Source: Ruminococcus flavefaciens
GTDB taxonomy: Bacteria > Bacillota > Clostridia > Oscillospirales > Ruminococcaceae
DNA: 43,972 nucleotides
Direction of reading: 5' to 3'
Assembly: GCA_002348905.1 (NCBI GenBank)
Contig: DEBW01000068.1
Coordinates: 8,395-52,366, forward strand
The translations under genes were made by a program, and so were the position numbers. Numbering within the stretch: the first letter of the stretch is position 1; every line of letters starts with the position of its first letter. Shown piece after piece: positions 8,658-11,860 of the stretch. Below the pieces are notes generated by a model that saw only the letters and a list, made by a program, of their open reading frames with translations, ran no database searches and was not told the DNA's origin.

Positions 8658-11285
8658 TTATAATGCAGAAGAAACGATGTTCTCAAACTGAGCGATAGCC
8701 TCGTCTATCTTAGTGATATCACCGGCACCAGCCATAGCGCCGTCAGGCTTTCCGCCGCCCTTACCGCCTGTTACAGCAGCAACTTCACGAACTATCTTGC
8801 CTGCATTTCCGCCCTTAGCTACAGCTTCCTTTGTGCATACACAGTAGAATGTGCCCTTTTCACCTGTTGCAGCAGCAAAGAGAGCTATAATAGCATCTTC
8901 CTTGTCCTTTACGCTGTCACCAAGCTTACGGAGAGCGTCAGGAGTTGAACCGTCCATTCTTGCAGATACGATCTTTACGCCCTTTACTTCCTTTGCATTG
9001 TCAAAGAGTGAAGCAGTCTTAGCGTTTGCTATCTGCTGATTAAGGCTTTCAAGCTGCTTGTCCTTATCCTTTATCTCAGCAGCTACAGCAGCACACTTCT
9101 CAGGAAGCTCTGTTACGTTAGCAAGCTTGAGTGCCTTTGCTGAACGTGCGATAGTGTCCTTGAAGCCGTTGAGGAGGTCAAGTACGCCAAGACCAGTTAC
9201 AGCCTCGATACGTCTTACACCAGCAGCTACAGAGCTTTCAGAAACTATCTTGAAAAGACCAATCTGTGAGGTATTTGATACGTGTGTACCTCCGCAGAAC
9301 TCAACAGAGTGGTGAGCAGTTACAACTCTTACCATGTCGCCGTACTTCTCGCCGAAGAGAGCCATAGCGCCGAGCTTCTTAGCCTTCTCGATAGGCATTT
9401 CCTCCATAGTTACAGGGAGTGCTCTCATGATCTCCTTGTTTACGAGGTATTCAACTCTTGCTATCTCCTCCGGAGTCATAGCAGAGAAGTGGTTGAAGTC
9501 GAAACGGCAAGCCTTGTCGTTAACGAGCTGACCAGCCTGATGTACATGGTCGCCGAGTACCTGACGGAGAGCATACTGGAGAAGGTGAGCTGTAGTATGG
9601 TTTCTCATAGTAGCCATTCTGCGGTCATGGTCGATAGAAGCAGTGACCTTGTCACCCTTGCGGAGTGTACCCTGCTCGATAGTTGCAAGGTGGAGGAAGT
9701 GTCCCTCAGACTTGATAGTATCAGATACAGCAGCGATATTGTGGTTTACCATGATAGTACCGATATCGCCTATCTGTCCGCCGCTCTCAGCATAGAACGG
9801 AGTAACATCGAGAACGATAGCTACCTCGTCTCCTTCGTCAGCGTAGTAAACTTCCTCGCCGTTCTTGTACATTGCAAGTATCTCAGCGTCCTCAGCAACG
9901 AAGTCGGTATAACCTGTGAATACTGTAGGAGCAGCATCTACCTTGATGCTGTTGTCAGCCCATGATGAACCAGCCTTTGCAGCGTGGTCAGCCTTGGCTC
10001 TTGCTCTCTGCTCCTTAGCAAGTTCAGTAAAGCGGTCACGGTCAACAGTGAGACCTCTTTCCTCGCATATTTCCTCAGTGAGGTCTATCGGGAAGCCGTA
10101 TGTATCGGAGAGCTTGAATGCATCATCGCCGGAGAGAACAGTCTTGCCCTCAGCCTTTAATGCGTCAGTGAAGCCGTTGAGAAGCTCTGTACCCTTGTCG
10201 ATAGTCTTAGCGAAAGCTTCTTCCTCAACGCCGATGATCTTCTTGATGTAGTCACGCTTTTCAGCGAGTTCAGGATAAGCCTTTTCATTCTCCTTGATAA
10301 CAGTGTCGCAAACATCGCAGAGGAAAGGCTTTGTGATGCCTAAGAGTCTGCCGTGACGAGCAGCTCTTCTGAGGAGACGGCGGAGAACGTAGCCTCTGCC
10401 CTCATTTGAAGGCATGATTCCGTCGCCTACCATGAATGTGGTACTTCTTATATGGTCAGTGATAACACGGAGAGAAACGTCAGTCTTGTGGTCTTTCTTG
10501 TACTCAACGCCTGCTATCTTTGAGATATGCTTCATTATGTTCTGAACAGTATCTACCTCGAAGATATTGTCAACGTCCTGCATTACACAAGCAAGTCTTT
10601 CAAGTCCCATACCTGTATCAATGTTCTTGTTCTTCATCTCAGCGTAGTTGCCGTTGCCGTCGCTGTCGAACTGGCTGAATACGAGGTTCCATATCTCGAT
10701 AACTCTGTCGCAGTCGCTTGCCTGCTCGAAGTTCTCGAAAGGACCGTAAGCCTCGCCACGGTCGAAGTGTATCTCAGAGCATGGACCGCATGGACCTGAA
10801 CCGTGCTCCCAGAAGTTGTCCTTCTTGCCGAGACGGATGATCCTGTCGTGAGGGATACCGATATTGTTCTCCCAGATCTGCTCAGCCTCGTCATCGCTCT
10901 CGTATATAGTTATCCAGAGGCGGTCAGCCGGTATTTCAAGCACCTTTGTAAGGAATTCCCAAGCCCAGTCGATAGCTTCTGTCTTGAAGTAATCGCCGAA
11001 TGAGAAGTTGCCGAGCATCTCGAAATATGTACCATGTCTTGCAGTTTTACCAACACTCTCGATATCAGGAGTTCTGATACACTTCTGGCAGGTTGTTACT
11101 CTTACGTTAGGAGGAGTAGCCTGTCCGAGGAAGAACTTCTTGAGAGGAGCCATACCTGAATTGATGAGGAGAAGGCTCTTGTCTCCCTGAGGAACGAGAG
11201 AAGCGCTTGCCATACGTGTATGGTTCTTGCTCTCGAAGAAAGATAAATACTTTTCACGAAGATCGTTAAGACCTGTCCACTGCAT
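8658..11285 (-). CDS. alaS: Alanine--tRNA ligase
   Basis: NSGMAPLK, TCQKCIR, HGTYFEMLGNFSFGDYFK, IDTGMGLER, editing NHTTAH and CGGTH, GGKGGG. Start moved to ATG 11285 (AAGGAG RBS); the longer ORF start lies inside the tRNA-like element. Confidence 0.98.
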   Translation of the reverse strand: MQWTGLNDLREKYLSFFESKNHTRMASASLVPQGDKSLLLINSGMAPLKKFFLGQATPPNVRVTTCQKCIRTPDIESVGKTARHGTYFEMLGNFSFGDYFKTEAIDWAWEFLTKVLEIPADRLWITIYESDDEAEQIWENNIGIPHDRIIRLGKKDNFWEHGSGPCGPCSEIHFDRGEAYGPFENFEQASDCDRVIEIWNLVFSQFDSDGNGNYAEMKNKNIDTGMGLERLACVMQDVDNIFEVDTVQNIMKHISKIAGVEYKKDHKTDVSLRVITDHIRSTTFMVGDGIMPSNEGRGYVLRRLLRRAARHGRLLGITKPFLCDVCDTVIKENEKAYPELAEKRDYIKKIIGVEEEAFAKTIDKGTELLNGFTDALKAEGKTVLSGDDAFKLSDTYGFPIDLTEEICEERGLTVDRDRFTELAKEQRARAKADHAAKAGSSWADNSIKVDAAPTVFTGYTDFVAEDAEILAMYKNGEEVYYADEGDEVAIVLDVTPFYAESGGQIGDIGTIMVNHNIAAVSDTIKSEGHFLHLATIEQGTLRKGDKVTASIDHDRRMATMRNHTTAHLLQYALRQVLGDHVHQAGQLVNDKACRFDFNHFSAMTPEEIARVEYLVNKEIMRALPVTMEEMPIEKAKKLGAMALFGEKYGDMVRVVTAHHSVEFCGGTHVSNTSQIGLFKIVSESSVAAGVRRIEAVTGLGVLDLLNGFKDTIARSAKALKLANVTELPEKCAAVAAEIKDKDKQLESLNQQIANAKTASLFDNAKEVKGVKIVSARMDGSTPDALRKLGDSVKDKEDAIIALFAAATGEKGTFYCVCTKEAVAKGGNAGKIVREVAAVTGGKGGGKPDGAMAGAGDITKIDEAIAQFENIVSSAL

Positions 11286-11321
11286 AAAAATAATCTCCTT
11301 TGATAATAAAATAATAAGGTG

Positions 11322-11436
11322 TGGTGTGCCGTGCAGGAATCGAACCTGCGACACGGTGCTTAAAAGGCGAACCTCTTGCTGTTACTGTCTTATACAAGAC
11401 AGGATTTTCCTGCTCTGCCAACTGAGCTAACGGCAC
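11322..11436 (-). ncRNA. tRNA-like element (Lys UUU-type loop) with ~37-nt internal insertion; encoded CCA
   Basis: Minus strand: GTGCCGT TA GCTC AGTTGGCA GAGC A [GGAAAATC CTGTCTT GTAT AAGACAG TAACAGCAAGA] GGTTCGC CTTTTAA GCACC GTGTC GCAGG TTCGATT CCTGC ACGGCAC A CCA. 7/7 acceptor, 4/4 D-stem and 5/5 T-stem pairs; canonical T-loop; 115 nt. Confidence 0.85.
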
Positions 11437-11439
11437 ATC

Positions 11440-11660
11440 AAACAAAAAACACCTCCGCCGCCAAATGGGACGAAGGCTCTCGTGGTACCACCCAAATTCA
11501 AAGGGACAATATATCCCTTCCTCGTATATCTTTAACGCAGAAATACGCCGCAGTTTCCCACGGAAGCTCAGGGTAAGCACCTGTCTCACGTCTGAAAGCT
11601 CACACCAGCCGCTTTCTCTCTGAAAGGCGTTACACGACAGTCAGTCCCTTCAATGCCATA
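11440..11660 (-). promoter_or_regulatory. Alanine T-box riboswitch upstream of alaS
   Basis: Stem I with AGAGA and GGTG motifs, GCT (Ala) specifier at 11576-11578, T-box AATTTGGGTGGTACCACG at 11481-11498, followed by a terminator. Confidence 0.93.
11441..11478 (-). terminator. T-box intrinsic terminator
   Basis: Imperfect hairpin CCTTCGTCCC...GGCGGCGGAGG followed by TGTTTTTTGTTT; overlaps the antiterminator 3' strand. Confidence 0.8.
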
Positions 11661-11667
11661 CTCCTAT

Positions 11668-11696
11668 ATTATATATCCATAAAAACTAAAAGTCAA
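11668..11696 (-). promoter_or_regulatory. SigA-type promoter for T-box/alaS
   Basis: TTGACT-17 nt-TATAAT. Confidence 0.85.
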
Positions 11697-11769: not shown

Positions 11770-11860
11770 TAAATTAGACGGATATTCTCCGTCCTTAACT
11801 GTTGAAAAACATGATATTTGCAGTAAAATTAGCGGGCGACGGGACGGCGTTCCGCCGTCC
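11770..11860 (-). terminator. Two GC-rich hairpins downstream of the orphan membrane gene (probable terminator region)
   Basis: GGACGGCG/CGCCGTCC (11842-11860) and GACGGA/TCCGTC (about 11777-11793); U-tails are weak. Confidence 0.45.

Follow-up and report, generated by a model that had tools for sequence, protein, structure and literature searches.

A tRNA-shaped RNA between the T-box terminator and alaS in Ruminococcus flavefaciens likely represents a class of Ro60-partner RNAs that is apparently undescribed

RNAs with the shape of a tRNA are known in connection with aminoacyl-tRNA synthetase and T-box control, both in clostridia (T-box-controlled tRNA genes) and in Bacillus cereus (a pseudo-tRNA), all of them having an anticodon arm of normal size and no module of the type that is found beside DUF2828 genes. 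In the alaS T-box riboswitch (RF00230), pairings of the GCU specifier with the anticodon and of the UGGU bulge with the ACCA end of the tRNA have been described, and even minor alterations of the tRNA affect antitermination (PMC4695836). Bacterial Ro60/Y RNA biology, which provides the closest relatives in overall plan, rests so far on few TROVE-type proteins. The Y RNA YrlA (RF02553), which works with Ro60/Rsr, is about 110 nt long. Its D and T arms resemble those of a tRNA, a stem that binds the protein takes the place of the anticodon arm, and the motif GNCGAAN0-1G lies near its 5' end, with RtcB in the neighbourhood of its partner gene (PMC4201824). In the rsr-yrlBA-rtcBA RNA repair operon of Salmonella, RtcB, a Ro60-fold gene and several structured RNAs occur together, and PMC7790460 raises the possibility that the tRNA-like domain inhibits an anticodon nuclease by competition.

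Here, we analyse a tRNA-shaped element in the leader of the alanine-tRNA ligase gene (alaS) of Ruminococcus flavefaciens, in a stretch of 43,972 nucleotides (the window; contig DEBW01000068.1, positions 8,395 to 52,366). Given that a folded tag in this element recurs beside genes for DUF2828 (a protein predicted to be Ro60-like), it is likely that the element belongs to an apparently undescribed class of Ro60-partner RNAs, and its role is likely to be that of a Ro60 partner rather than of a switch for the synthetase gene.

The alaS leader and its tRNA-shaped element

In transcription order (all features lie on the minus strand), the leader starts with a SigA-type promoter (11668-11696; TTGACT and TATAAT separated by 17 nt, an 11/12 consensus match), followed by a T-box leader (11463-11662; RF00230, 97.4 bits against an Rfam cut-off of 93), whose GCU specifier (11578-11576) and antiterminator bulge UGGU (11490-11487) agree with the downstream synthetase gene. 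An intrinsic terminator comes next (11440-11478, hairpin of -15.8 kcal/mol, U run at 11449-11440), then the 115-nt tRNA-shaped RNA (11322-11436), an AU-rich spacer of 36 nt (11286-11321) with the RBS AAGGAG at 11300-11295, and finally alaS itself (8658-11285, ATG at 11285; 875 aa, TIGR00344, 987 bits, E 9e-297). This order had been proposed in a first-pass annotation of the window and is confirmed by the promoter scan, Rfam and TIGR00344. In the same annotation no separate promoter had been seen for the element, which is borne out for this genome by the scan, where no other minus-strand promoter-like site was found between the promoter at 11696-11668 and alaS. The specifier, the bulge, the terminator and the gene downstream are those of the alaS T-box described in PMC4695836, from which the window differs in having a structured non-coding RNA between terminator and RBS. 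The neighbours of alaS in the window are a hinT-like gene, apt and a gene for a PBP, and an inverted repeat is present upstream of the alaS promoter (11842-11860).

The element has the outline of a canonical tRNA, with a 7-bp acceptor stem (containing G3:C70), D arm, T arm, A73 and CCA, its 3' end being ACCA. The Rfam tRNA model scores it at 44 bits (cut-off 29), matching the acceptor, D and T arms and leaving a 55-nt middle unmatched, while ARAGORN calls no tRNA in the window; the folding z-score is -3.08, with 1 of 200 shuffles equally good. Within this middle, a 7-bp hairpin is inserted in the anticodon arm (11385-11402) and is followed, 2 nt later, by the motif ACAGCA (11377-11382). It is this conserved part (11402-11377) that was absent from the first-pass annotation, in which the element was described as a tRNA mimic with a UUU loop; the loop was overstated. 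The Lys-like anticodon loop (11360-11366, UUU at 11364-11362) is degenerate, since only 2 pairs close it, and in the minimum-energy fold the UUU is paired into another hairpin. A functional tRNA-Lys was considered and is ruled out by the length and the anticodon stem of the element, which should be about 76 nt and 5 bp (with a 7-nt loop) in a canonical tRNA-Lys(UUU); ordinary genes for tRNA-Lys(UUU), on another contig, and for tRNA-Ala(GGC) are present elsewhere in the genome. The identity rule of AlaRS for tRNA-Ala is a G3:U70 pair, whereas the element in the window has G3:C70.

Contigs from rumen RNA libraries match the region without differences, and three of them (X2, 11260-11484; X5, 11260-11498; X4, 11150-11484) start at the antiterminator, cross the element and extend towards or into alaS. 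These bridging contigs, which carry no information on ends, strand, level or processing, fit a single transcript from the promoter and co-transcription by read-through, in line with the earlier suggestion that the element is read through into the alaS transcript. The RNA runs end at 11610-11648 or further downstream and X15 (whose kind is not on record) extends upstream, a weak hint of a promoter at 11668-11696. Among the joints listed for 8 runs (7 of RNA and one of unknown kind), no joint skips just the insert, which, these being contigs, is no proof that a spliced form is absent. The X7 record that matched both arms turned out to be another tRNA.

The element family in alaS leaders of the genus

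DNA searches of the genus provided 26 copies that could be aligned, 23 from alaS leaders and three from DUF2828 leaders. With a structure set by hand on these copies, pairing holds in 96.5% of 592 cells and two-sided changes are seen in 19 of the 23 pairs, the covariation spanning the acceptor, D and T arms as well as the inserted hairpin (6 of its 7 pairs); slid controls pair at 48% at most, and a shuffle control is inflated by the relatedness of the copies. The covariance model built from this alignment (R1), which the 26 copies match by construction, separates the family (at least 58 bits, in 21 of 150 genomes) from ordinary tRNAs (at most 53 bits) and, at E 1e-9, has no match in 149 other genomes of the order. 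An AlaS match was found in 146 genomes, from which 140 leaders were fetched and five left out (partial match or contig end). R1 detects 29 copies in 17 of the 140 leaders, which, including the window, makes 30 copies in 18 of 141 leaders, with one to four copies per leader. The element thus recurs and is not a one-off, incidental insertion; in all 18 carriers it is located between the terminator and the RBS.

What does not vary in the middle of the family is a core formed by the 7-bp hairpin, 2 nt and ACAGCA (exact in 25 of the 30 copies). Its surroundings range from a full anticodon-like arm (UUU or CAU) down to none, and 13/30 alaS copies pass a loose test for an anticodon-like loop. A73 is found in 28 copies, an encoded CCA in 11, G3:U70 in two and the YrlA motif GNCGAAN0-1G in none of the 30. 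The two copies with G3:U70 differ at position 73: the one in G055 has G73, and the one in G063 (L319:869-969) has both A73 and CCA, which makes it a possible substrate of AlaRS. By eye, a TATAAT without a good -35 is present ahead of the element in four genomes (G005, G067, G041 and G007).

In one alternative reading, the core would be an intron-like insert in a masked tRNA gene, with halves that RtcB would join into a spare tRNA-Lys(UUU) on demand. Several copies do keep a loop with U33 and a purine at position 37 (UUU, CAU) together with a split anticodon stem, RtcB is a neighbour of DUF2828 and A73 fits the identity rules of both Lys and Met tRNAs. However, the insertion point differs among copies, many copies have no anticodon at all, a canonical tRNA-Lys(UUU) is already present in the genome and the sole fold matched by DUF2828 is that of Ro60, with no match to a nuclease domain. 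This possibility is very improbable.

Two further roles are both related to the control of alaS. In the first, which the first-pass annotation favoured, excision of the element would give the alaS mRNA a new 5' end and thereby a second control layer, which binding of DUF2828 or AlaRS could modulate. The constant location between terminator and RBS, the contigs that bridge element and alaS, and the modules located 5' of the gene in DUF2828 leaders too (as autoregulatory sites would be) are in favour of such control in cis. Nevertheless, 123 of the 141 leaders are without the element, the copy number and the spacing vary widely (196-709 nt from antiterminator to ATG in the carriers with a T-box), modules are also found downstream of DUF2828 in the phages Archie and REP7, and G3:U70 occurs in only 2/30 copies. 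With most relatives lacking the element and three of the 18 carriers having lost the T-box while keeping 2-4 copies, the second layer becomes less likely, and we regard it as improbable. That the module accompanies DUF2828 genes in phages and bacteria irrespective of alaS speaks against it, as well as against the second role, that of a ligand for the T-box.

This second role would involve pairing of the AGC within ACAGCA with the GCU specifier and of the terminal ACCA with the UGGU bulge, the uncharged RNA exerting positive feedback on read-through. The AGC is perfectly complementary to GCU, 28/30 copies have A73, and the element is likely not charged by AlaRS because 28 of the 30 copies are without G3:U70. 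Still, the AGC lies outside the anticodon loop, CCA is encoded in only 11/30 copies, three carriers have no T-box, and alaS antitermination is sensitive to small tRNA changes (PMC4695836). ACAGCA is found family-wide, in phages without a T-box, and is therefore no adaptation to the alaS leader. A ligand role seems, in consequence, hardly credible. The AGC was also tried as an anti-specifier and rejected, given that in G007 the motif is ACUGCA with the GCU specifier unchanged and that the motif is family-wide.

On a nucleotide tree of alaS (FastTree, 132 rows, with G041 left out for having too little sequence), the carriers are scattered and at least 12 state changes are needed. The alaS copies all have similar acceptor stems, and what by eye look like remnants occur in genomes scored as non-carriers, namely a decayed tRNA-like copy in G137 and acceptor-like stretches in G155, G107 and G065. 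From these sequences we infer one ancestral insertion behind the alaS terminator, with tandem duplication and repeated loss, after which the element would have been retained in about 13% of the examined leaders.

The T-box itself has a history of loss in the genus. In the 136 genomes with at least 400 nt upstream, the T-box motif is present in 15/18 carriers and in 71/118 non-carriers, and a GGTGCT stretch is found in all 86 T-box leaders of this comparison. The motif is absent from the remaining 50 of the 136 leaders (set L287-L426), which fall in several separate clades; alaS T-box control has been lost repeatedly in the genus. The three carriers without it (G093, G074 and G104) keep 2-4 copies, and T-box gating is hence not needed for retention of the element. 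A link between the element and T-box loss was considered and is unsupported, as 47/118 non-carriers are also without the motif. In the leaders of these three carriers (L313, L330 and L363, respectively), the T-box is deleted and a terminator-like hairpin with a U run (-10.7 to -14.5 kcal/mol) is retained about 60 nt after the promoter, ahead of the 2-4 copies.

The scattered distribution also counts in favour of a relic: an ancestral array of the DUF2828 type would have landed behind the alaS terminator and would now be decaying, with no partner or function in the genome of the window. No DUF2828 gene was found in this genome, the anticodon stem is degenerate in its copy, non-carriers contain remnants, and other repeats also insert at the same spot of the leader. 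We consider this unlikely, for in the window copy the four helices and ACAGCA are intact, the pairs covary across copies, G093, G074 and G104 retain arrays of 2-4 copies, and the genome in which no partner was found is 75% complete. Beside the elements in five alaS leaders (L007, L008, L027, L029 and L035), there are AT-rich short tandem repeats and GC-rich inverted repeats, and these flanking repeats are possibly small mobile repeats.

ACAGCA modules and the DUF2828 protein

Outside alaS, a DUF2828/DUF7788 gene directly follows the element in both G112 and G157, and in G100 two tRNA-scaffold copies (58 and 88 bits) directly precede a DUF2828 gene. DUF2828 leaders in general contain tandem modules (up to 8 per leader). 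In each of these, one strand of a stem is followed by 2 nt, ACAGCA and a variable loop, before the partner strand closes the stem; the alaS insert is a circular permutation of this module. No hexamer is more enriched than ACAGCA over the 800 nt preceding DUF2828 genes, both viral (128 sense versus 2 antisense sites in 51 non-redundant loci of 80 fetched) and bacterial (297 versus 15 in 72 loci of 80). At 78/128 viral and 231/297 bacterial sites, the strand of a 7-bp stem that stops 2 nt short of ACAGCA finds its partner downstream, against a background of 172 in 4041 ACAGCA sites in the genome of the window. The DUF2828-associated ACAGCA class, for which we defined the criterion in the present analysis, comprises RNAs with such a stem on a scaffold that is tRNA-like or carries an anticodon loop, and positions 11402-11377 of the window conform to it in permuted form. 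The inserted hairpin is likely the stem that the protein binds, in circular permutation with respect to the bare module.

The full tRNA-scaffold form (R1, at least 58 bits) is found at 34/80 viral DUF2828 loci (many of them near-duplicates), always sense and upstream, and is rare at the bacterial loci (2/80). Anticodon-like stem-loops of at least 4 bp follow ACAGCA in 33 of 145 viral modules (3.9 in shuffles) and 55 of 307 bacterial ones (9.8 in shuffles), the commonest loops corresponding to Asn, Lys, Phe and Asp. The cultured phages Archie, LP-064, REP7 and VRE9_3 have ACAGCA modules beside the DUF2828 gene, with Archie and REP7 having them downstream as well; no module was found in the 6.4 kb around the DUF2828 gene of phage CBB. 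In Escherichia phage REP7, the downstream modules are interleaved in a tRNA cluster (L431:4100-4850), where an annotated 131-nt 'tRNA-Thr' contains one of them. In Listeria phage LP-064, a ROOL-like RNA (L430:884-1435, 87.4 bits, below the cut-off of 99.1) precedes three ACAGCA modules and DUF2828, and an RtcB-like gene lies further downstream. In G100, a match to an HDV-like ribozyme that is below cut-off (L052:2811-2884, 41.4 versus 50 bits) lies just downstream of DUF2828, among unannotated small genes.

DUF2828 was analysed with a profile of 23 aligned sequences. By sequence, it stands apart from known Ro60 proteins: domain searches at E ≤0.001 returned only DUF2828 and DUF7788 (and not the Pfam TROVE domain, PF05731), and a profile search of the PDB gave no Ro60 chain at E ≤1 and nothing else relevant. 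By predicted structure, the picture is different. An AlphaFold model (pLDDT 82) has its best Foldseek match at E 3.8e-7, all the matches listed at E ≤0.001 being Ro60 chains, and VIA-align superimposes the model on 2i91_A with Z 21.7 (rmsd 4.2, 412 aligned), the first non-Ro60 row having Z 9.3. DUF2828 is thereby predicted to fold like Ro60 over its full length, as a ring of helical repeats plus a vWA domain. The pattern of the MIDAS motif is DxSxS, and D292, S294 and S296, invariant in the 23 sequences, fit it. The resemblance to Ro60 is not new, since some phage records already label DUF2828 homologues as 'Ro-like RNA binding protein'.

RtcB is encoded directly upstream of the array in 7/16 DUF2828 loci (chosen by hand and mostly from carriers), and neither RtcR nor RtcA was found among the 44 neighbours scanned. 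DUF2828 matches occur in 692 phage records and in 81 of 161 genomes of the genus. Carriers of the alaS element have DUF2828 more often (15/18 versus 52/118 non-carriers, Fisher p 0.002), and on phylogenetically independent pairs the co-occurrence is not significant (median p 0.625). The protein is present without an alaS copy in 52 genomes, and there are carriers without a DUF2828 match: G022, G064 and the genome of the window (G000, 75% complete), in which no DUF2828, DUF7788 or TROVE gene was found and neither of the two RtcB genes is followed by an ACAGCA array.

Comparison with YrlA and the proposed role of the element

The element is similar to YrlA in its length, in its tRNA-like D and T arms and in having a putative protein-binding stem where the anticodon arm would be, and the two also share a partner gene with a Ro60 fold (here predicted) and an RtcB neighbourhood (PMC4201824). 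They differ in the motif, which is GNCGAAN0-1G in YrlA (PMC4201824) and stem-NN-ACAGCA in the present family, and in the partner, as DUF2828 has no sequence match to solved Ro60. They also differ in topology: YrlA has the order T arm, loop-closed acceptor, D arm, whereas the alaS form keeps the normal tRNA order and is circularly permuted, with free acceptor ends and a binding stem closed by a loop. Additionally, YrlA is expected within 4 kb of a TROVE/Ro60 gene, while the element sits in an aminoacyl-tRNA synthetase leader. RF02553 has no match in the window at its cut-off (69 bits), and related alaS arrays score 26-28 bits. Some DUF2828-leader modules come closer. The best of them (L235, 50.3 bits, below the cut-off of 69) encloses a T arm, a closed acceptor and a D arm in YrlA order and can be aligned with the YrlA model along its entire length of 114 positions, its ACAGCA stem falling on the 5'/3' closing stem of YrlA; a second module (L227, 46.1 bits) is similar. 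By analogy, the element likely works like a Y RNA, although on motif, topology, Rfam score and neighbourhood it is no YrlA.

The likeness to the Salmonella operon (PMC7790460) likewise has its limits, since the DUF2828 loci show no RtcR or RtcA among the scanned neighbours and contain up to 8 modules, many of them with anticodon loops, and the RNA in the window is under a SigA promoter and a T-box. Rfam 15 has no family for the element, the alaS and DUF2828 leaders giving only tRNA, sub-threshold YrlA and unrelated weak matches, and no description of an ACAGCA RNA or of an RNA partner of DUF2828 was found among the open-access papers that the literature searches listed. The present analysis provides a concrete RNA motif for DUF2828, in three topologies (bare module, YrlA-like and open tRNA-like), and this motif bears on the purpose of tRNA mimicry in Y RNAs.

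We propose that the element is a Y-RNA-like partner of DUF2828, made by T-box read-through, excised and acting in trans, and we give this whole chain a probability of roughly 0.55. The starting points are observations, namely the anatomy of the leader, the family with its covarying pairs, the association of the module with DUF2828 genes and the presence of RtcB upstream of many of these; the identity of the family, on its own, is very probable. Read-through of the alaS T-box likely makes the RNA, which RNase P and a 3' nuclease would then release, tRNA-processing enzymes being the likely agents of the cuts. DUF2828 would bind the stem-ACAGCA module as Ro60 binds the stem of Y RNA, an interaction that we consider probable. 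The tRNA body and the anticodon-like loop could serve as a decoy or a tether for enzymes that attack or repair tRNAs. The alaS promoter would mainly supply expression, with alanine-dependent gating as a likely by-product; it is not obvious why uncharged tRNA-Ala should be a signal of tRNA damage, and this counts against the explanation. Further points against it are the missing DUF2828 match in three carriers (the genome of the window among them), the lack of significance on independent pairs, the 52 genomes with DUF2828 and no alaS copy, the rarity of the tRNA-scaffold form at bacterial DUF2828 loci, the failure of R1 to match in 149 other genomes of the order and the many alaS copies in which an anticodon-like loop is missing.

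A broader and considerably more tentative version, which we think is possible but would not expect, is that DUF2828 and the ACAGCA RNAs form a second Ro60/Y RNA system, widespread among phages and bacteria, in which genuine anticodon loops (for Lys, Met, Asn, Asp, Phe and other amino acids) bait anticodon nucleases beside an RNA ligase, and that one Ruminococcus lineage wired such RNAs to the alanine T-box. If this were true, a riboswitch that senses uncharged tRNA would control the output of a non-coding tRNA decoy. The alaS copies are, in any case, an example of a non-coding RNA under a T-box, and ACAGCA modules explain some of the oversize 'tRNA' annotations in phage tRNA clusters. Finally, in another genome (G173), a YrlA-like stretch (L042:1516-1579, 34.5 bits) was observed before a fragment that, by eye, resembles the end of a TROVE/vWA gene.
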